NCBI RefSeq assembly: GCF_049706645.1
Contig: NZ_JBNAKP010000019.1
Location: 153-64,152, forward strand
Reading direction: 5' to 3'
DNA from: Methanosarcina sp.
GTDB lineage: Archaea > Halobacteriota > Methanosarcinia > Methanosarcinales > Methanosarcinaceae
Length of the DNA stretch: 64,000 nt
The stretch's first letter is position 1, and each line of letters starts with the position of its first letter. The position numbers and the translations under genes were made by a program. Below the pieces are notes generated by a model. That model made no database searches, had not been told where the DNA came from, and was given only the letters and a program-made list of their open reading frames with translations. Positions 203 to 11,805 of this stretch are shown one piece after another.

Positions 203-568
203 TTATTTTGAAGCTGCTTTTGGCGCTTTTGGAGTGTCTACTTTCGGGACCAGTGTTTTAACAGTTTCTTTCGCACCGGTTTTTGGCCTTTCATTAGATA
301 TCGTTAGACAATCTTTCGGGCAACCAACAACGCATTCGGTGCACATAATGCATCGAAATAAATTAATTTCCCACATTTTATCAGCTTTGGTAACTGTTAT
401 TGCATCAGGGGGGCATTTCTTTTGACATATCCCGCAGAGAATACAGTTTTCAGGATTGAAAACAATCCTCCCTTTAAATTCTTTAAAAGGTTCCCTTATT
501 TCGAAGGGGTAAAGTCTGGTAGCAGGTTTACGAGAAATGTTTGTTAGAACAAGGTTTAACATACCCAT
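203..568 (-). CDS. echF: Ech hydrogenase subunit F (2x[4Fe-4S] ferredoxin-like)
   Basis: Two CxxCxxCxxxCP motifs (CILCGICQKKCP, CIMCTECVVGCP); last gene of the ech cluster. Confidence 0.93.
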   Translation of the reverse strand: MGMLNLVLTNISRKPATRLYPFEIREPFKEFKGRIVFNPENCILCGICQKKCPPDAITVTKADKMWEINLFRCIMCTECVVGCPKDCLTISNERPKTGAKETVKTLVPKVDTPKAPKAASK

Positions 569-584
569 TATATCACCCTTCTTT

Positions 585-1661
585 TTATCTTTCAGTGCAG
601 CTAATGCAGGGATCTATAGTAAGTACAACTATAGGCACATCAGCGAGTCTAACACCTGGGAGCATTAGTAACAGTGAAGGTATATTTGCAAAGGTAGGAG
701 TTCTTATTTTAAGCCTTTCCAGGTTTTTAGTACCATTACCTTTTACGTAATATACAACTTCACCTCTGGGCTGCTCTGTTCTCATAATCGCTTCACCAGT
801 AGGGAAGCCCTTTATGGGTGTTGCAATTTCACCATTAGGCATCTTGGAGATCGCATTCCTTATCAGCTTAATAGATTCGTATAATTCAATGATTCTTACT
901 TTAGTTCTGGCGTAACAATCTCCATCTTTTTCAACGGCTGGCTTAAAACCGAGATCCCTATAAATGTCCCAGTCTGCTGTTTCTCTTACGTCAACAGCGT
1001 TCCCACTTCCTCTGAGTGTAGGACCAGCTGTTCCAGCCTCATATGCTAGTTGTTTTGACATTGTAGCTAATCCTACAAGTCTCTGCTTAACAGTGTAATT
1101 ATTTACAAACACTTTTTCGATATCTTTAACTTGAGATTCCACTGTATCAAGCATTTTCAGAATCATATCAATATTTTCTTTAGTCAGATCTTTGGTAACT
1201 CCTCCGACTTTGGATATTGAATGTATAACTCTGTTTCCAGTGATTCTCTCCAGTACATCTAATACTGTCTCTCTGTACTTCCAGCATTCATAGAAGAGGC
1301 TTTCAAATCCAAAACCATCGGCAAACAGGCCAAGCCAGAGGAGGTGACTGTGAACTCTGTTGAGTTCACCGACTATTACTCTTATATACTCCGCCCTTTC
1401 AGGAATCTCGGCATCGAATAGTTTTTCAACTGCCTTTGTATAAGTTATACCATGGAGGGCACTGCATATTCCGCATATTCTCTCGCAAATATACGTGGTT
1501 TGATTATAGTCCTTTGTGTCTATGAATTTCTCAAGCCCTCTGTGCACGTAGCCCAGTGAGGGAAGTGCTCCAACAACAACATCGTTGTCAAGTTCAAGTT
1601 TTAACGATACTGGTTCAGGTAAAACGGGATGTTGAGGACCAAACGGTATTACGGTTGTCAT
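585..1661 (-). CDS. echE: Ech hydrogenase large [NiFe] subunit E
   Basis: N-terminal FGPQHP, GYVHRG, ERICGIC; C-terminal DPCISCTER with no cleavable extension, as known for group 4 EchE. Confidence 0.97.
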   Translation of the reverse strand: MTTVIPFGPQHPVLPEPVSLKLELDNDVVVGALPSLGYVHRGLEKFIDTKDYNQTTYICERICGICSALHGITYTKAVEKLFDAEIPERAEYIRVIVGELNRVHSHLLWLGLFADGFGFESLFYECWKYRETVLDVLERITGNRVIHSISKVGGVTKDLTKENIDMILKMLDTVESQVKDIEKVFVNNYTVKQRLVGLATMSKQLAYEAGTAGPTLRGSGNAVDVRETADWDIYRDLGFKPAVEKDGDCYARTKVRIIELYESIKLIRNAISKMPNGEIATPIKGFPTGEAIMRTEQPRGEVVYYVKGNGTKNLERLKIRTPTFANIPSLLLMLPGVRLADVPIVVLTIDPCISCTER

Positions 1662-1683
1662 GTGATTCTCCTCTCAAATTGCT

Positions 1684-2034
1684 TTAAGCTAAGGGAGCCT
1701 TTGGACTGTTTGGTGTCAGGTAAAGGTGGCCTTTGTAGTCTATTGCTAAACCTTCGAAAGTCAAGCCGAAGAGATCCTGGTACTCATTCTCAATTAAAAG
1801 TGCACATAGATAAATGCCTGAAACACTCTTGGGTTTCTCTCCTGGTTTCACAAAGTACCTTAGATTTTTTAATTTATTGTCTTTCTCAAAGACATATATA
1901 AAATCGTGACCTTCGTTAGCTTTCAGGCATATCATAGTAGAATATCGATAGCCATCACTTTTTAAACCCTCAACAGTTTTTAGCAGCTCTCCACTGTTCT
2001 TAATTTCTGTGGAGTCTATGGTATTCTCAAGCAT
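1684..2034 (-). CDS. echD: Ech hydrogenase subunit D (NuoC-like)
   Basis: SVSGIYLCALLIENEYQDLFGLTFEG resembles the NuoC/EchD motif; lies between echC and echE. Confidence 0.9.
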   Translation of the reverse strand: MLENTIDSTEIKNSGELLKTVEGLKSDGYRYSTMICLKANEGHDFIYVFEKDNKLKNLRYFVKPGEKPKSVSGIYLCALLIENEYQDLFGLTFEGLAIDYKGHLYLTPNSPKAPLA

Positions 2035-2497
2035 TCGATGGCACCTCGCTTCCTTTCAATTTTACCTCTTTTCCTTTGATATTCCCTTTCTTCTTATTTT
2101 CAAGTATTGAAAGTGCTGCTACTACGCCGTCAAGTATGGCTTCAGGCCTTGGGCAGCATCCGGGGACATATGCATCTACCGGTATAACCTGGTCCACTCC
2201 GCCTATTACATTATAGCAGTTATGGAATATCCCGCCTGTAGATGCACAGGCGCCTACTGCTAAAACAACTTTGGGGTCAGGAATCTGGTTATAAATGTTC
2301 TTAATTACATTTACATTTTTATAATTTAGCGAGCCTGTAACCACCATTATATCAGCTTGCTTAGGAGTACCGATGTTTAAAACCCCAAACCTTTCAGCAT
2401 CATATAAGGGTGTAAGACAGGCTACTACCTCAATGTCACAGCCATTGCAGCTGTTACAATTTACATGTATAATCCATGGAGATTTTGCTAAACTCAT
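2027..2497 (-). CDS. echC: Ech hydrogenase small subunit C (NuoB-like)
   Basis: CNSCNGCDIE, GACASTGG and YVPGCCPRPEA motifs. Confidence 0.95.
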   Translation of the reverse strand: MSLAKSPWIIHVNCNSCNGCDIEVVACLTPLYDAERFGVLNIGTPKQADIMVVTGSLNYKNVNVIKNIYNQIPDPKVVLAVGACASTGGIFHNCYNVIGGVDQVIPVDAYVPGCCPRPEAILDGVVAALSILENKKKGNIKGKEVKLKGSEVPSNA

Positions 2498-2511
2498 AAG
2501 TCTCCCTCTTT

Positions 2512-3381
2512 TTACACTAATTTGACTCCACTAAAGTACAGGAATGCTATATTTACAATGGAAATTATCAGTAAAACTGTCCAGCTTAGTTTGAGCATCC
2601 ATTGCCAGTACACTCTTGCAGTAATGTTGTCTATAAGAGTTACAAAGAAGAAAGCAGCCGCAGATATAAGCACACCTATCAATGGGTTTACCGCCCAGAA
2701 TACGAATATTAGTCCTGTTAAAAACACGTATTCATAGAAGTGCCCAATCTCAATGCCGGCCATACCTGGCCCTGAATATTCGGTCGTCATACCTTTAACC
2801 AGTTCCTGATGACCGTGGTGAGAGGTTGAATAGTCAAAGGGTGACTTCTTCAATTTTATATTCAGAACAACTATCATTGCTATGAATATAAGAGGCGTGT
2901 ACATCAGCAGAGGGGTTGATGCGTCTACCAGCGCAGATAATTTGAAAGTTCCGGTAAGCAAGTATATGGCAAGAGCATATAATATTAAAATTGGTTCATA
3001 AGCCAGTATAGCCATAATTTCCCTTGAACTTCCTATCCTGGCGTATGGTGAACCAGTACTCATTCCACCTACTATGAGAGCTATCGAAGATACCGTGTAT
3101 ACAAATATTATCATCAGAATATCTGCTTTAAGCACTAACATCAAGAGGCTCAAAATTAAGAAGGCTACGTACACTACCACGTAGAAGTTTTGAGACGGGT
3201 TTACAACCAGATTGTCTTTACTGAGGAGCTTCCTGACATCATAGTATGGCTGCAAAAGGGGAGGACCGACTCTTCCCTGCAATCTTGCAGTAATTTTTCT
3301 GTCAATTCCTGCGTATAGGCAGCCAATCACAGGAGCTACAAATATAACAAGAACAGCTAATAAAATATCGTTCATGTTCAT
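2512..3381 (-). CDS. echB: Ech hydrogenase membrane subunit B (NuoH-like)
   Basis: GIDRKITARLQGRVGPPLLQPYYD and PFD...ELVKG...EYSG motifs; hydrophobic; start overlaps the echA stop. Confidence 0.95.
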   Translation of the reverse strand: MNMNDILLAVLVIFVAPVIGCLYAGIDRKITARLQGRVGPPLLQPYYDVRKLLSKDNLVVNPSQNFYVVVYVAFLILSLLMLVLKADILMIIFVYTVSSIALIVGGMSTGSPYARIGSSREIMAILAYEPILILYALAIYLLTGTFKLSALVDASTPLLMYTPLIFIAMIVVLNIKLKKSPFDYSTSHHGHQELVKGMTTEYSGPGMAGIEIGHFYEYVFLTGLIFVFWAVNPLIGVLISAAAFFFVTLIDNITARVYWQWMLKLSWTVLLIISIVNIAFLYFSGVKLV

Positions 3382-5291
3382 AATACTCCTCCTGCTAATG
3401 CAATTACAATGAGAATTATCGAAATTGCATATCCGAGTACTGTAAGTTTACTTTCTCCAAAGGTATTTTGAAGGTAGATGTTAGAGACACTGCTCTTATC
3501 GTAACTGCAAGTTCCGTTTCTGAACATTAATCCGTCTTTTTCCATGTTGTTTTCTCCACACATATAATAGTTAACTCTGCGAGGAGTGAACATGTTTCTG
3601 GTAGCGAAATAGATCAGAATAGCCAGAGCAAGCGCTCCGAAGATTGCTGCATAAGCAAATGCCCCTATTTCAGAGGTAAATTGTCCAGCCTGTCCTGAGA
3701 TCTCAGGAGCAGCTTGAAGCAGAATTTCAACCTGAGGTTTAATGAAGTAATTGTATATTGAAAATACAAATATACTTGTAACTATAATCGCCAGTCCAAG
3801 GAATGACAGTGGGAAATACGTTTCCGGTTTTTTGTGGTGAACTGCATTCTTATCCATGCTGGATGATAAGATTGTTCCCATCCACTTAGCATAGTAAACT
3901 GTAGTGAGTGCACTTCCAAGTATAAGGAATACTATCACAATAGGGTTGCTTGAAGCAGCTTCCATTGACACCCATTTTGTAAGCAATACCCCAAAAGGAG
4001 GTAAGAGCATGGATACCATTCCCAGAGCTGCAAGACTGGTAAGAAGAGGAGCCTTATTTATTAATCCTGACATGTCCTCAATATCTCTGCTTCCTATTGT
4101 GTGTTCAATTTCACCTGTGCACAGGAACAGAAGAGCTTTTGATATGGCGTGGAACAGAATAAGCATAATCGCAGCAGCTACAGCCAGAGGCGTACCAATT
4201 CCAGCGCTTGCGATAATTAAACCCAGATTTGCAATTGTAGAGTAAGCAAGTACTCTCTTGGCATTCCTCTGGGATAAGGCTAAAGCCGAGCACATAACGA
4301 AGGTAAAGCTACCGTAAACTGCAATAGCTGTTCCGAGACTCGTGCCCGCAAAAGCCGGTACTAGTTTGACGACTAAAAACACACCTGCATTTACCATTGT
4401 GCTTGAGTGCAGTAAGGCCGAAACCGGGGTTGGAGCTACCATTGCGCCTAAGAGCCAGCTCTGGAAAGGCATCTGAGCAGATTTCGCAAAGCCTCCTATA
4501 CAGAGTAAAGCAACAGGAAGGGCTACAGCGGCCATTGTTGTTGCATCAGTTCCAGCGTAAGTTCCGATTCCAGAAAGAGTACCTATATCATATGTTGCGA
4601 GCAGAATTATGCCTATAGATAGAGCAATTCCACCAACCAGGTTTAAAGCCAGAGCCCTGAAACCGTTATTTATTCCTTCTTCATCCATGTTGTATGAGAT
4701 TAACACGAACGAACAAAGAGTTGTTAGTTCCCAGAAAAGAAACAGCCATCCCAGCGTGTCAGCCATTACCAGACCATTCATGGCTGCCAGGAAGAAACTC
4801 ATCGTAAAGTAGAAAGTTTTTTGTCTGTTTAAATGCCTGTGTTCTTCATATTCATCCATATAACCGGTTGCGAATAATATAATCGCAGTACCGACTATAT
4901 TAACAATTAATATCATGATCTGAGAAAATTGATCAATATTAAAAGAAGCACCTTCGGCATGTGGAAGACTGGTAAAAGTGTAAGCAAATACAGCTGCTGA
5001 AATTATTCCTAGCCCGAGTGTAGGCCAGTTTTTATATTTTGCTGACACACCAAGAATAAATAATATCACCAGTACTTCGAGTATAAGGACAATATTTTCT
5101 AGCATTGCGAAATTTGGTTCGCCAATCTCAACTACTCCAGTACCATCCAGTACTAAACTAACTGATAAAGCTACCCCAAGTATGAAAAAAGCCCAAGCCA
5201 GGTACTTGTATAGCGATTTGGGAAGGGCTACGAATAAAAACGAAAACAGTACGGGTACTGCAATTAATAGCATAACAGTATTTTCTATCAT
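3378..5291 (-). CDS. echA: Ech hydrogenase membrane subunit A (NuoL/MrpA antiporter-like)
   Basis: FWELTT, KSAQMPFQSWLLGAMVAPTPVSALLHSSTMV, LAYSTI motifs; 637 aa, multi-TM. Confidence 0.95.
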   Translation of the reverse strand: MIENTVMLLIAVPVLFSFLFVALPKSLYKYLAWAFFILGVALSVSLVLDGTGVVEIGEPNFAMLENIVLILEVLVILFILGVSAKYKNWPTLGLGIISAAVFAYTFTSLPHAEGASFNIDQFSQIMILIVNIVGTAIILFATGYMDEYEEHRHLNRQKTFYFTMSFFLAAMNGLVMADTLGWLFLFWELTTLCSFVLISYNMDEEGINNGFRALALNLVGGIALSIGIILLATYDIGTLSGIGTYAGTDATTMAAVALPVALLCIGGFAKSAQMPFQSWLLGAMVAPTPVSALLHSSTMVNAGVFLVVKLVPAFAGTSLGTAIAVYGSFTFVMCSALALSQRNAKRVLAYSTIANLGLIIASAGIGTPLAVAAAIMLILFHAISKALLFLCTGEIEHTIGSRDIEDMSGLINKAPLLTSLAALGMVSMLLPPFGVLLTKWVSMEAASSNPIVIVFLILGSALTTVYYAKWMGTILSSSMDKNAVHHKKPETYFPLSFLGLAIIVTSIFVFSIYNYFIKPQVEILLQAAPEISGQAGQFTSEIGAFAYAAIFGALALAILIYFATRNMFTPRRVNYYMCGENNMEKDGLMFRNGTCSYDKSSVSNIYLQNTFGESKLTVLGYAISIILIVIALAGGVL

Positions 5292-6140: not shown

Positions 6141-7211
6141 TCAAAACCTGAACTTATCTTTATTTTTATCCATAATTTTAACCAGGGAGAGCATTACGGG
6201 AACTTCCACAAGAACACCTACTACGGTAGCAAGGGCTGCTCCTGAATTCATCCCGAAAAGAATAAGGGCCACTGCTACAGCCAGTTCAAAGAAATTGCTC
6301 GCTCCAATGAATGTAGAGGGAGCGGCTTCCCTGTAAGGAATTTTCAGGTATTTTGCGCCTGCATACCCGATCCAGAAGATAAGATAGGTCTGCAGAACAA
6401 GAGGAAATGCAATCAGAAGAATATGCAACGGATAATTTATGATATTTTTCCCCTGAAATACAAAAATGAGGATAAGGGTAACTAAGAGGCCAAGAGGGGT
6501 TACCCATTCAATTCTCTTTATTAGCCTGTTTTCAAACCAGGTAATTCCTTTTTTCCTTATGACTACCTGCCTTGTCAGCACAGCGAGACCAAGAGGAAGT
6601 GCTACATAAAAAACGACCGAGGCGAAAATGGTCATAAGGGGCACAGGAAAATCGGTTGTAACTCCAAGGAGGAATTTTCCTAGCGGGGCAAAGAGAATCA
6701 GGATTACAAGATCGTTCACTGAAACCTGAATAAGGGCATAATTAATATTAGCTTTTGCGAGATAAGTCCAGACAAGTACCATTGCCGTACAGGGAGCAAG
6801 CCCGAGGAGAATCATACCTGCAGTGTACTGAGCCTGTAGGTCAGCAGGAATGAATGATGCAAAGATCACGTGCATGAAAAGCCATGCAATAAAAGCCATG
6901 GTAAAGGGCTTGATTACCCAGTTTACGACAAGGGTCAGAAGAAGGGGTTTAAGGTTTGCTTCAACATTGAGGATTTCCTCAAAATTTATCTTTAGCATGA
7001 TGGGATACATCATAACAAGAAGCACAGCAGCTACAGGTACGGAGACATTTGCAATCTCGATTCTTCCCAGGGTATTCGCAAAGCCTGGAAAGGCATAGCC
7101 GATTACGGTTCCCAATACTATACAAACTGCAACCCAGATAGAAAGGTATTTACTGAAAAAGTCGAGTTCTCTTTCTTCTTCAAATTCGATTTTCTCTCTT
7201 TCCCCGGACAT
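6141..7211 (-). CDS. acr3: Arsenite efflux transporter, ACR3 family
   Basis: LDFFSKYLSIWV, MMYPIM, LLGLAPCTAMV (conserved Cys), ASNFFELAVAVA, GVLVEVPVM signature motifs. Confidence 0.93.
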   Translation of the reverse strand: MSGEREKIEFEEERELDFFSKYLSIWVAVCIVLGTVIGYAFPGFANTLGRIEIANVSVPVAAVLLVMMYPIMLKINFEEILNVEANLKPLLLTLVVNWVIKPFTMAFIAWLFMHVIFASFIPADLQAQYTAGMILLGLAPCTAMVLVWTYLAKANINYALIQVSVNDLVILILFAPLGKFLLGVTTDFPVPLMTIFASVVFYVALPLGLAVLTRQVVIRKKGITWFENRLIKRIEWVTPLGLLVTLILIFVFQGKNIINYPLHILLIAFPLVLQTYLIFWIGYAGAKYLKIPYREAAPSTFIGASNFFELAVAVALILFGMNSGAALATVVGVLVEVPVMLSLVKIMDKNKDKFRF

Positions 7212-7232: not shown

Positions 7233-8117
7233 TTACTCTTTTCTTCTGTTTGCCGAAATTAAAAGTACAGGTTTTATGGTTTGCCGGAGCACCCTCTCTA
7301 CCGTACTTCCAAGCAACAGTTCCTTAACTTCACCTCTCCCCCGGGCAGTCATTATGATCAGGGTAACATCTTCAATATCGGCAAGCTTAACGATTTCTTC
7401 AGACGGAACGCCTTCAGGCACGCTGTACCTGACAGTAACTCCTGAAAAGCGTTTCCCTATTTCCTGAAGCCGGCCGATTGTTTCTGCTTTTTGCTCATCC
7501 AGCAGATCGAGATCTTTTATATTATCTATAACATAGACAAACACGATCTCCTTCAGAATTTCAGTAAACTCGTGAAGCTGCTCAACTGCCCTCATGGCTT
7601 CTTCTGAGAAATCCAGGGGTACAAGAATTCTGGAGAAGGTTGTTCGGCACGCCTTCCCATAAACTTCCTTTCCTTCTTTCAGGACATTGTACTTTTCAAC
7701 AAGAAGCATCCTTTCGGACCTGTGAGCTATATATTCCGTAGTTCTCCCCAGGAACCTGCCCTTTATAAGCCCTTTAGTAGTAGCTCCTATAATAATACAG
7801 TCAACGTTCTTTTGATTGGCAATCTCTATAATAACTTTCGCAACTTCTCCTACTACAACCAGGGTTTCGGCTTCAAGCTCAAGGTCCCTGACAAAGTTCG
7901 CGTGATATTCGATCTCTTCTTTTGCATGCCGTTCAAACATCGGGGCAAGCCCCTGAGCTTTATGGATATCCACTACATGCAGCAGAATAACTCTCTTTAG
8001 TCCGGCATTTCTTAGTTCCCCTATGCAGCCGAGCAAATCTTCCGTTTCTATGGTGAAATCAGTGGGAACAAGTACGGTTTCAATCAATCCAGCGCCCCCG
8101 GTTACAGAGTACTCCAA
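7233..8117 (-). CDS. Universal stress protein, tandem USP domains
   Basis: TVLVPTDFT and ILVPLDFS; G-x2-GRFLGRTTE and ARGRG...LLGSTVERVL; TTG start; 21 bp upstream of acr3. Confidence 0.88.
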   Translation of the reverse strand: MEYSVTGGAGLIETVLVPTDFTIETEDLLGCIGELRNAGLKRVILLHVVDIHKAQGLAPMFERHAKEEIEYHANFVRDLELEAETLVVVGEVAKVIIEIANQKNVDCIIIGATTKGLIKGRFLGRTTEYIAHRSERMLLVEKYNVLKEGKEVYGKACRTTFSRILVPLDFSEEAMRAVEQLHEFTEILKEIVFVYVIDNIKDLDLLDEQKAETIGRLQEIGKRFSGVTVRYSVPEGVPSEEIVKLADIEDVTLIIMTARGRGEVKELLLGSTVERVLRQTIKPVLLISANRRKE

Positions 8118-8957: not shown

Positions 8958-9341
8958 TCACTTGGACTGGAGTATTTCCCCAACTTTTTCAAGGGCAAGG
9001 GCGACTTCTTCTTCTTTCAGATCCATATCCTTTGTCTTCTTGATCCCCAGCTCGGAAATTATTATATGACGGTCTACATTAAAGCCAGCCAGTTCAAGAG
9101 TTTTTCTGGCGCAGTTTACGGGACAACCGTCAATAGCAATGATCTTTTCGGAGGATTCTGCTGATTTCATAAGGCCCGGTGCTCGAGCCCCAATTCCCAC
9201 TGTACACATCATATTTCCGACTTCCTGCCTGACAAGTTCGATTGCAATTTTGTTTGAGATCTGTCCCGTGTTTGAAGCTCCTGCACAGGGAAAAATTGCA
9301 ACATTGGCTGCTCCGCACGCACATTTTGTATTTTCTGCCAT
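8958..9341 (-). CDS. DGC-domain putative zinc-binding protein
   Basis: FPCAGASNTGQ, MMCTVGIG, IAIDGCPVNCARKTL motifs. Confidence 0.88.
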   Translation of the reverse strand: MAENTKCACGAANVAIFPCAGASNTGQISNKIAIELVRQEVGNMMCTVGIGARAPGLMKSAESSEKIIAIDGCPVNCARKTLELAGFNVDRHIIISELGIKKTKDMDLKEEEVALALEKVGEILQSK

Positions 9342-9410: not shown

Positions 9411-9644
9411 TTATTTTTTAATCCATTTTTTGATATCATTCACGCTTGGGACTTTTCCTGCGACTTTAACATCCCCGTCAATTACAAGAGCAGGCGTGAC
9501 CATAACTCCATATCCCAGAATTTTATCGAAATCCTCTACCTTGACGATTTCAGCATCAACGCCCAGTTCTTTAACTGCTTTTTCTGCCAGTTCCTTTGTT
9601 TTTTTGCATTTTGCACATCCAGTACCCAGTATTTCGATTTTCAT
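9411..9644 (-). CDS. Small thioredoxin-family protein (MTH895-like redox-active disulfide protein)
   Basis: MKIEILGTGCAKCKK (CxxC) and GVMVTPALVIDG; start moved to ATG 9644 behind an AGGTGA RBS. Confidence 0.9.
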   Translation of the reverse strand: MKIEILGTGCAKCKKTKELAEKAVKELGVDAEIVKVEDFDKILGYGVMVTPALVIDGDVKVAGKVPSVNDIKKWIKK

Positions 9645-9759
9645 ATTTTTCACCTGAAAATTTTATTAACTTTATTCATTCTCTACATCATTTATTTGAT
9701 TTCTATACCTTCATTTCTTCGTAGGGTTATTTAGATCTTGTTTGTTTCAGTATTATTTT

Positions 9760-10812
9760 TTATGCAATCCTAAGTCCGAATGTATAACCTGAAATGGTTG
9801 CAATCAATATCACCAGGAAAATATAAGTCATTCCTTTTTTTATTCCCATTACCCTGTTGATTACAATCATACTCGGGAGGCTGAGTGCAGGGCCTGCAAG
9901 AAGCATGGCAAGAGAAGGGCCTCTTCCCATTCCAAGCAGGGTAAGCGCTTTGATGATAGGCACTTCTGTAAGAGTTGAGAAGTACATCAGCGCTCCTGTA
10001 ATAGATGCGACAAAGTTGGAAGCAAGGGAATTTCCTCCTACAAAATATGCTACAATCTCTTTTGGGAGCACTTCAACTATAATGCCTGCGAAAAATACAC
10101 CTATGAGGAGCAGAGGGGTAATTTGTTTGATCAGGAACCAGGTCTCTCCCATCCAGCTTTCAAGTTCCTCTTTTGAGAACCACTTAATAGACAGATATGC
10201 AGTAAGCGCTATCAGTGGTGTCCAGGCAATTATCTGATTTGTGTATTTCCAGCCCCAGGAGGACATGAATTCCGGCGCTACAAGAACTGCAATTAGCAAA
10301 ATAAAAAGCTGAACAGTATGTTTGTGCTCTTCTTCTCCAAAGGTTTTTATGGAACTGTGTTCCGCTCCTTTCCTTTCGTAAATCAGAGACATTGTCAGGC
10401 CTATAAACACTGAAAGAAGCACAGCCGAAAAGGCCCTTGCAGCTCCAAGGTCATATCCCAGGATTTTTGCGGTATAAACAACTGCAAGAATATTGATTGC
10501 AGGAGCAGAGAAAAGAAAAGTGGTTGCAGGGCCTATACCTGCTCCTCTTTTGTATATTCCCGCAAAAAGAGGAAGAGCCGTACAACTGCAGACTGCAAGA
10601 AGACAGCCTGAAGCCGCAGCTACGGTATATGAAATATATTTTGGGGTATCTGCGCCAAAGAACTTCAATACGGATTCTTTAGAAAAGAGGGAGGCTATTG
10701 CTCCAGCTAGAAGAAAGGCAGGTAGGAGGCACATCAGTACATGAAGGGCCAGATATTCCTGCAGCGACTGAAACCCAATCGATATTAGATATACAATGTA
10801 GTCCAGGGTCAT
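9760..10812 (-). CDS. Permease, ArsP/DUF318-like
   Basis: LAVCSCTALPLF, GAGIGPATTFLFSAPAIN, YFSTLTEVP, LLAGPALSLPS; usual partner of the thioredoxin and DGC genes in ars clusters. Confidence 0.85.
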   Translation of the reverse strand: MTLDYIVYLISIGFQSLQEYLALHVLMCLLPAFLLAGAIASLFSKESVLKFFGADTPKYISYTVAAASGCLLAVCSCTALPLFAGIYKRGAGIGPATTFLFSAPAINILAVVYTAKILGYDLGAARAFSAVLLSVFIGLTMSLIYERKGAEHSSIKTFGEEEHKHTVQLFILLIAVLVAPEFMSSWGWKYTNQIIAWTPLIALTAYLSIKWFSKEELESWMGETWFLIKQITPLLLIGVFFAGIIVEVLPKEIVAYFVGGNSLASNFVASITGALMYFSTLTEVPIIKALTLLGMGRGPSLAMLLAGPALSLPSMIVINRVMGIKKGMTYIFLVILIATISGYTFGLRIA

Positions 10813-10832: not shown

Positions 10833-10901
10833 TATTTCAAATATATTTGAAATAACTCTTCAACATATATATAAATTCCTGTTTCAAACGTATTTGAAAT
10901 A
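10833..10901 (-). promoter_or_regulatory. Permease promoter: TATA box flanked by two palindromic operators
   Basis: Perfect 22-bp palindrome TATTTCAAATATATTTGAAATA at 10833-10854; near copy TGTTTCAAACGTATTTGAAATA at 10880-10901; TTTATATA on the minus strand at 10868-10875. Confidence 0.7.
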
Positions 10902-11101
10902 ATTTTCTGGATCATATCCCATCATAAATCGTTCAATTTTATAATATCCAGATCCAGGCTAAAGTCCGGGACTGAAATTCAGGAATAATGTTCAAGGCTA
11001 TATATTATATATACTTCAAAAGGATCGATCGTTAATTTTAGTCAGGAGTATTCCTCCCATCAGTGTATTTATATATATATTTCTAGCAATGTTTGAAGAA
11101 T

Positions 11102-11479
11102 ATGGTTAAAATCGAATCCGAATGCATTTCCAGAAAGAGGTGCTTTCTGTATACCATTCTCCTGTTTATCCTTGCAGGCATTTTTGAGATAGGGGGAGGC
11201 TACCTTCTGTGGCTGTGGCTACGTGAAGGCAGGGAACTTATTTTTGCATTTTCAGGGGCAATTATCCTGTTTTTATACGGAATCGTGCCCACTTTCCAGC
11301 CGTCTTACTTCCACAGGATATATGCAACTTATGGTGGCATTTTTGTTGTTATGTCCCTTTTATGGGGCTGGATCTTCGATAAAATCCCTCCAGATACCTA
11401 CGATCTCATAGGCGCCCTGATTATTCTCATCGGAGTGTCAATTATTTACTACTGGCCGAGAGAGGATGATAATAAGTGA
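11102..11479 (+). CDS. YnfA/UPF0060 family 4-TM membrane protein, copy 1
   Basis: [20 protein letters not shown]; TATA (TTTATATA) at ~11068 suggests a near-leaderless start at ATG 11102. Confidence 0.88.
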
Positions 11480-11805
11480 TTGATCCTGCTATTTCTCTTG
11501 CTCTGTTTTTTCTGGCTGCCCTTTTTGAAATCGGAGGAGGCTACCTTGTCTGGCTCTGGTTAAGGGAAAATAAAGGGGCAGTCTTCGGGCTGCTCGGAGG
11601 ACTGATACTGGCGGTCTACGGGATAATCCCCACCTTCCAGCCCGCACATTTCGGCAGGGTTTATGCTGCCTACGGAGGAATCTTTATTGTTTCATCCCTG
11701 ATCTGGGGAGCCCTTGTCGATAAGAAAAACCCCGACAAATATGAGATAATAGGGGCATTGATCGCACTTGCAGGTGTGCTGATAATGTTCTATATGCCTC
11801 GCTAA
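11476..11805 (+). CDS. YnfA/UPF0060 family 4-TM membrane protein, copy 2
   Basis: [22 protein letters not shown]; GTG start overlaps the copy 1 stop (GTGA). Confidence 0.9.

Follow-up and report, generated by a model that had tools for sequence, protein, structure and literature searches.

Tandem YnfA paralogs with opposite charge bias in Methanosarcina: a candidate antiparallel heterodimeric transporter

The window analysed here, a stretch of 64,000 nt from Methanosarcina sp. (NCBI RefSeq assembly GCF_049706645.1, contig NZ_JBNAKP010000019.1, positions 153 to 64,152 of the forward strand), carries two overlapping genes of the YnfA/UPF0060 family, called here copy A and copy B, whose products have opposite biases in the placement of lysine and arginine (K+R) between the two predicted faces of the membrane. 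We found this opposition to be conserved in every intact tandem ynfA pair that we surveyed, with the biases of single-copy relatives lying near zero. Because the genes also co-occur, overlap in their reading frames, trace back to one duplication and are predicted to share the fold of the small multidrug resistance (SMR) proteins, these observations support the insertion of the two proteins in opposite orientations and an obligate pairing between them. We consider it very probable that the pair functions as an antiparallel A:B heterodimer of fixed orientation, an SMR-like proton-coupled exporter of cations.

Two overlapping ynfA genes with opposite charge bias

Copy A, the candidate upstream subunit (11102..11479, forward strand; 125 aa, ATG start, K+R bias +4), is followed directly by copy B, the candidate downstream subunit (11476..11805, forward strand; 109 aa, GTG start, K+R bias -3). 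Both open reading frames encode full-length members of the family and are paralogs of one another: they match the Pfam family PF02694 (UPF0060; E 1.3e-38 and 131.9 bits for copy A, E 3.9e-44 and 149.7 bits for copy B, against a cut-off of 24.9) as well as the NCBIfam equivalog NF002586 'YnfA family protein' (135.5 and 143.5 bits, respectively; cut-off 114), and they share 59% identity across 103 aa. The motif FEIGGGY is present in both, and its glutamate in the first transmembrane helix (TM1), namely E29 of copy A (codon 11186..11188, forward strand) and E18 of copy B (codon 11527..11529, forward strand), is invariant in a family alignment of 113 sequences. The initial annotation of this stretch, made from the sequence alone, had described two translationally coupled paralogs with four transmembrane helices that both keep this glutamate, and each part of that description agrees with what we found, from the overlapping frames and the matches to family hidden Markov models (HMMs) to the four helices seen in structural models.

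The two reading frames overlap at GTGA (11476-11479), in which the GTG start of copy B (11476-11478), a codon that is ATG in relatives, is interleaved with the TGA stop of copy A (11477-11479). A purine-rich sequence resembling a Shine-Dalgarno element, GAGAGGATGAT (11460-11470), is positioned 5 nt before the copy B start, and together with the overlap it makes up a putative translational coupling signal (11460..11479, forward strand). Inspection of the sequence upstream of the pair revealed a TATA-like box, TTTATATATATATA (11067..11084, forward strand), ~20-35 nt 5' of the copy A ATG, which is the probable promoter of a two-gene operon. An alternative TTG start at 11093, upstream of this ATG, would lengthen copy A by 3 residues.

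Charges were counted with helix limits taken from AlphaFold models (copy A, 11-42, 46-65, 70-91 and 99-117; copy B, 4-30, 35-54, 59-80 and 88-106). On the side formed by the termini and loop 2, copy A carries seven K+R residues (K3, R11, K12, R13, R72, R120 and K125), as compared with three in loops 1 and 3 (R41, R44 and K94), and the corresponding numbers for copy B are two (R61 and R109) and five (R30, K33, K83, K84 and K88). These values are identical to the hand count in the initial annotation. Copy A is accordingly predicted to lie with both termini inside (N-in/C-in), and copy B with both termini outside (N-out/C-out).

Four of the seven presumed 'inside' charges of copy A fall in its N-terminal tail (11102..11146, forward strand), a segment of 15 residues predicted to be cytoplasmic, which also holds a C-x5-C motif (C8 and C14; 11123-11143). 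Both the motif and the K/R cluster are kept in all of the Methanosarcinaceae upstream copies examined (13/13). Nucleotide differences among orthologs in this tail occur mostly at third codon positions, which indicates that the tail is translated. The C-x5-C motif is a possible binding site for a soft metal or metalloid, as far as its sequence suggests; it is not present in the Nitrososphaerota copies.

Taken alone, the K+R counts of one pair are too low for significance. A survey of paired ynfA loci, which the initial annotation had suggested, was carried out by a pattern search with one genome per species, yielding 80 loci with 2.5 kb flanks that were scanned with the family HMM, with K/R counted by HMM position. 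Together with loci from the same genus, this produced 26 intact tandem pairs (13 Methanosarcinaceae and 13 Nitrososphaerota loci) and 61 true singletons from ~15 phyla, two of them from archaeal genomes (Methanothrix, L035, and a metagenome-assembled genome (MAG) of Thermoproteota, L039) and the others bacterial. In all 26 pairs the upstream gene had a positive bias (+3 to +9, median 5) and the downstream gene a negative one (-7 to -3, median -4.5), whereas the singletons ranged from -3 to 0 (median -1). The upstream group had zero overlap with either of the other groups, and downstream copies and singletons touched only at -3, through a singleton at a contig edge (L030). Pair members and singletons differ with a Mann-Whitney p of ~3e-14 each way, shared ancestry being ignored. 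Since the pattern is repeated in 26/26 pairs and contrasts with the singletons, it lies far above chance. A bias between -2 and +2 was also found in 23 of the 24 full-length representatives of the family at 50% identity. The opposite insertion that the initial annotation had derived from this one pair by the positive-inside rule is thereby supported, as a predicted orientation, across all of the pairs.

The charges responsible for the bias are not placed alike in the two archaeal groups, occurring mainly in the N-terminal tail of the upstream copies in Methanosarcinaceae and mainly in their C-terminus and loop 2 in Nitrososphaerota. The sign of the bias is therefore constant while the charged positions themselves turn over, and the bias itself appears to be under selection. 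The gene order, predicted N-in followed by predicted N-out, is conserved among the pairs, with overlapping frames in most: in 21/26 pairs the second gene starts 4-26 nt before the end of the first, and in the other 5 a gap of 2-7 nt separates the two. Copies A and B do not occupy the same reading frame in any pair.

Three candidates for singletons with a pronounced bias were rejected on closer inspection, as L089 is in fact a pair whose copy A contains 3 TGA stops, L034 is a pair with a truncated upstream copy, and L030 lies at the edge of its contig. In a Nitrososphaera MAG (L016:2368-2824), none of ATG, GTG and TTG precedes TM1 in the downstream copy, which may reflect either an unusual start codon (ATA or ATT) or a contig error.

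Distribution, ancestry and a chimeric gene

The genome from which the window derives holds these two ynfA copies only. Elsewhere in the genus, the family is found in 17/24 other genomes, and all 17 of these have tandem pairs (one or two each), alongside a few decayed pairs; M. acetivorans also carries the family. The sole intact unpaired gene in the 17 positive genomes is an A/B chimera (in G021), a type of gene to which we return below. Across the phylum (301 genomes), pairs are confined to the window's own family, where they occur in three genera, and single genes were found in four genomes of other families. Among the Nitrososphaeria, 37/151 genomes are positive for the family, with one to three pairs in 35 of the 37 and only fragments among the unpaired genes. 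No tandem pairs were detected in the 117 family-positive genomes of Pseudomonadota (401 genomes searched). In the ~55 family-positive genomes of Methanosarcinaceae and Nitrososphaeria, an intact A-type or B-type gene never stands alone, and the chimera is the sole intact gene without a partner.

Several genomes show multiplied or decaying pairs. The Nitrososphaeraceae G339 and G340 have 2-3 pairs each, and in another member of the Nitrososphaeria (G785:C1:1629741-1631367) two complete ynfA pairs stand directly in tandem, forming four genes in 1.6 kb, with a third pair elsewhere in the genome. One of the three G340 pairs (G340:C25:200998-201682) has a broken upstream (predicted N-in) copy and an intact downstream copy. 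In the decaying pairs of G004, G006, G013 and G216, both copies are fragmented.

When 118 core sequences were placed in a maximum-likelihood tree, all downstream (predicted N-out) copies from both archaeal groups fell in one clade (support of 99 in the Shimodaira-Hasegawa-like approximate likelihood ratio test, SH-aLRT), and all upstream (predicted N-in) copies in a separate clade (SH-aLRT 92). Since the upstream and downstream copies fall into separate clades, the operon arose once, from one old duplication; that it is common to two distant archaeal lineages reflects either transfer or deep descent with loss. Fixed differences between the A and B types occur at three positions only: three residues before the glutamate of TM1 (G in A, A in B; A15 of copy B), in the FxR motif (H in A, G in B; H60 of copy A), and before the fourth transmembrane helix, TM4 (D in A, E in B; E90 of copy B).

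In a number of metagenomic sequences, a single chimeric ynfA gene encoding 121 aa replaces the pair (L095:4001-4366, L096:4001-4366, L097:1993-2358 and L098:1968-2333, two of them from NCBI metagenome assemblies and two from SRA runs), and a different sequence version of it is found in a Methanosarcina MAG (L009:777-1139). The first ~27 codons of the chimera are A-like and include the K/R-rich tail, after which the sequence turns B-like at a junction within the conserved FEIGGG region; the resulting K+R bias is about +1 by hand count. In L095-L098 the gene occupies the syntenic site beside an ArsP-type permease gene, and no ArsP match was found near it on the MAG contig L009. Each of the contigs L095-L098 stops no more than 200 nt beyond the chimera. 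Copies A and B of the window share no exact match longer than ~12 nt, as judged from the alignment, and an assembler artefact is therefore unlikely to account for the chimeric gene.

Such a gene could have originated in a deletion that joined the tail of A and the first part of its TM1 to the rest of B. If functional, the chimera may represent a natural reversion from a heterodimer to a balanced homodimer of dual topology, that is, one whose single protein inserts both ways. It is conceivable, and we advance it only tentatively as a rather unlikely account, that YnfA records both directions of topology evolution, with one duplication leading to the A/B operon and, in some Methanosarcina, a deletion between the FEIGGG regions leading to a balanced chimera. 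Were this true, the family would hold both forward and reverse topology evolution, and the chimera is in our view more interesting than the pair itself.

Predicted fold, proposed mechanism and alternatives

Single-chain AlphaFold2 models, computed with the 113-sequence alignment, show a confidently predicted four-helix bundle for both copy A (pLDDT 88.2, pTM 0.75) and copy B (pLDDT 92.5, pTM 0.80). When these models were compared with the PDB using Foldseek, the top 10 matches of copy A (TM-score 0.50-0.69) and the top 8 of copy B (TM-score 0.49-0.65) were all Gdx-Clo or EmrE. The only credible matches were SMR proteins, namely Gdx-Clo (6wk5, 8vxu) and EmrE (8uoz, 8uwu, 7mgx, 7ssu, 7jk8), aligned over essentially the whole chain, with TM-scores of 0.57-0.69 and probabilities of 0.9-1.0 for the good ones. 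In the Pfam scan, copy B also gave a sub-threshold match to EamA (E 0.0023, 18.6 bits against a cut-off of 28.2). The pair is predicted, from these models, to share the SMR fold while lying outside the SMR sequence family PF00893. The solved structures of EmrE and Gdx-Clo are antiparallel dimers, and a subunit with a fixed orientation would therefore need an oppositely oriented partner to build that architecture.

From the sequence and fold evidence, the positive-inside rule and the reported sufficiency of one or two charges, we infer the actual topology of the two proteins, the formation of a heterodimer, its coupling to protons and its substrate. As regards the charges, Rapp et al. 2006 and Seppala et al. 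2010 are said to have fixed or flipped the orientation of EmrE and other E. coli dual-topology candidates through single K/R changes. According to the model that we propose, copy A would insert with both termini in the cytoplasm, owing to its K/R-rich N-terminal tail and its C-terminus, and copy B would insert the other way round, its N-terminus being without positive charge and its loops 1 and 3 carrying extra K/R. The overlapping frames, through coupled translation, would provide roughly equal amounts of the two proteins. These four-helix subunits would then assemble into an antiparallel heterodimer with the EmrE/Gdx fold, in which the two invariant TM1 glutamates may build a shared central site for protons and cations, and export of a small cation would be coupled to proton entry through an alternating-access conformational swap like that of EmrE. 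Bacterial YnfA would reach the same architecture from one gene of balanced charge whose product inserts both ways (dual topology), and the archaeal pair would be the fixed-orientation version of it, derived from one old duplication.

A number of observations weigh against this model. The 26 pairs share one duplication and hence do not constitute 26 independent events, and in the genome studied here the positive bias of copy A depends on its N-terminal tail, falling to 0 without it. The Foldseek E-values are weak (0.02-2.6), as is usual for helical bundles of 100 residues; a profile of the family searched against PDB sequences ranks six EmrE entries first, at E-values that are not significant (0.14-0.46); and neither copy has a match to PF00893 (Multi_Drug_Res) in the Pfam scan. 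The arsenic-resistance genes found beside the pair, which are described below, are kept in part of the genus and absent from Nitrososphaerota, and because this link is partial, the inference of a substrate from it is weak. Finally, one genome (G249:C1:894539-895193) holds an intact B gene beside a frameshifted A gene, which could point to a recent loss of A, to an error in sequencing or to an ability of B to work alone.

This last case would fit with each protein acting as a homodimer or on its own, the operon merely bringing together two separate transporters of opposite fixed orientation, which could serve import and export or different substrates. An identity of only 59% between the paralogs and the residues fixed in one type (H60 in A, A15 and E90 in B) would also suit such a division of labour. 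But in the ~55 family-positive archaeal genomes noted above neither type is found intact on its own, with the chimera as the sole unpaired intact gene, the overlapping frames suggest synthesis at 1:1, and the antiparallel build of EmrE and Gdx-Clo calls for an opposite partner wherever a subunit is fixed; we give independent function only a slim chance. It might also be that the charge bias has no effect on orientation, and that both proteins insert both ways as homodimers, like bacterial YnfA, with the duplication adding dosage or substrate range. The absolute biases of the window's pair are indeed moderate (+4 and -3), and the positive-inside rule is only presumed to apply to these archaeal proteins. 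Nevertheless, biases that are opposite in 26/26 pairs, that stand clearly apart from the range of the singletons, and that are maintained during the turnover of charged positions make a bias without effect very improbable, all the more as single K/R changes reportedly suffice in EmrE-like candidates.

Hardly any weight falls on the idea that the pair is not a transporter but a small membrane scaffold or sensor subunit, working, for example, with the neighbouring permease. It would be in keeping with a genomic context that differs between lineages and with the lack of a transport assay for any purified YnfA, but the glutamate embedded in the membrane is invariant, the predicted fold is SMR-like, bacterial homologs have phenotypes of the efflux type, and in most lineages the pair occurs without the permease. 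If the two genes encode a fixed-orientation A:B heterodimer, as we favour, then the topology should be easier to map, the two glutamates easier to mutate asymmetrically and the structure easier to study than for a dual-topology homodimer, since either subunit should lie one way only, and annotation should treat both genes as subunits of one transporter.

Neighbourhood, substrate and relation to known systems

The pair lies beside a metalloid cluster encoded on the reverse strand. The first gene of this cluster, divergent from the pair, specifies an ArsP_1-type permease (9760..10812; PF03773, E 2.9e-79), and the cluster further includes genes for an ArsE-like thioredoxin (9411-9653; TIGR00412, 113 bits), a DGC-domain protein (8958-9341) and a Usp protein (7233-8117), both assigned by Pfam, and an ACR3 arsenite exporter (6141-7211; TIGR00832, 371.8 bits against a cut-off of 282.8). 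The initial annotation had pointed to a metal-resistance context, which the exporter, the thioredoxin and the permease just upstream of the pair bear out. Upstream of the arsenic cluster is a six-gene cluster for an Ech-type membrane-bound hydrogenase (203-5291, reverse strand), comprising complex I-like subunits and a NiFe large subunit, and the ynfA pair is followed downstream by two genes for ammonium transporters and one for P-II.

Within the genus, an ArsP-type permease gene adjoins the pair in 5/12 loci. The contexts in Nitrososphaerota are heterogeneous, with HxlR regulators occurring twice and otherwise unrelated genes. With ArsP and ACR3 present in only part of the genus and the Nitrososphaerota contexts mixed, a shared gene context was set aside as a guide to the substrate. 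Among the singletons, four of ~62 loci (L038, L039, L062 and L079; three bacterial and one from a Thermoproteota MAG) have, no more than 2.5 kb away, an ACR3 homolog with 26-45% identity to the ACR3 of the window, a recurring but infrequent arrangement.

Two perfect copies of the palindrome TTTCAAA-N4-TTTGAAA (10835-10852 and 10882-10899) flank a TATA-like box just before the gene of the ArsP-type permease; allowing <=2 mismatches, the window contains 5 matches, as compared with 1.4 expected. These palindromes were rejected as candidate operators of ynfA, as they adjoin the start of the permease gene and lie ~200 bp from the TATA-like box of ynfA, with no sign that they control it.

Bacterial mutants of UPF0060 genes are specifically sensitive to Tl(I) in four strains, and a Tl(I) efflux pump was proposed on this basis (Price et al., bioRxiv 10.1101/072470); these fitness data confirm the connection to thallium that the initial annotation had drawn. 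Shigella YnfA shows SMR-like efflux behaviour and affects resistance to dyes and antimicrobials (PMC9295541). The substrate of the archaeal pair might conceivably be a soft monovalent cation, for instance Tl(I), or some species linked to the arsenic cluster beside the pair, a suggestion that we regard as doubtful.

Rapp et al. 2006 named five dual-topology candidates in E. coli, namely EmrE, SugE, CrcB, YdgC and YnfA, the last of which has a K+R bias of 0 (PMC3962082, Table 1). The initial annotation had put forward opposite insertion as something not described for YnfA, and our literature search likewise found, within the library searched, no paper on paired ynfA genes; the claim nonetheless overstated the novelty, since the E. 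coli protein had been a dual-topology candidate from 2006 on. The abstract of that early study reportedly states that the members of dual-topology families are either single genes or pairs of opposite orientation. The archaeal pair is a well-documented instance of an established design principle, not a new concept. Its novelty is modest because YnfA was among the original candidates and because the same logic is established for paired SMR proteins, Fluc twins and DUF606; with the principle known since 2006 for these three, no concept is changed.

The YnfA proteins of E. coli and Shigella (KEGG 'small multidrug resistance family-3') belong to the same Pfam and NCBIfam families as the archaeal copies and have four transmembrane helices with the invariant TM1 glutamate in EIGGG, but they are encoded by single genes of balanced charge, whereas the archaeal function is split over two oppositely biased genes. 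EmrE and Gdx-Clo, the best and only convincing structural matches, similarly have an essential glutamate in the middle of TM1; they differ in being dual-topology proteins encoded by single genes, have no significant sequence similarity to the pair, and probably act on different substrates. Comparable in design are the paired SMR proteins (EbrAB and YkkCD of Bacillus, MdtIJ/YdgEF of E. coli), which, like the YnfA pair, are adjacent, co-expressed four-helix paralogs with opposite K+R bias and a TM1 glutamate in both, and which are thought to form antiparallel heterodimers; YdgE/YdgF is listed as such (PMC3962082). These proteins belong to PF00893, which neither copy A nor copy B matches, so that the likeness is at the level of the fold only, and unlike them the YnfA pairs were found in two archaeal lineages only.

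The Fluc (CrcB) family presents the same picture, in that its singletons are balanced and its 'fraternal twin' genes (e.g., La1/La2) are biased in opposite senses when the termini and loop 2 are set against loops 1 and 3 (PMC3755343), although its fold and family are unrelated and its members are channels as opposed to carriers. Eukaryotic members of Fluc include fusions that contain an inversion-linker helix, and DUF606 has a fused two-domain stage, whereas no natural two-domain fusion of YnfA was found among the best 150 of 2,458 representatives. Long YnfA matches that resembled fusions were mis-called starts or eukaryotic N-terminal extensions without added transmembrane helices. One apparent A-B fusion (P0021, 213 aa, L094:2001-2888, on a single metagenome contig) was an indel artefact, in which the C-terminus of B carries on in another frame past an A-run and the B part is without TM4. 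DUF606 otherwise shows the same evolutionary passage, in which a singleton of dual topology gives way to two genes of opposite orientation (Lolkema et al. 2008, cited in PMC3962082), and the archaeal genes, in the biochemically little-known YnfA/UPF0060 family, provide a clean and well-sampled case of this passage in the evolution of inverted-repeat transporters.

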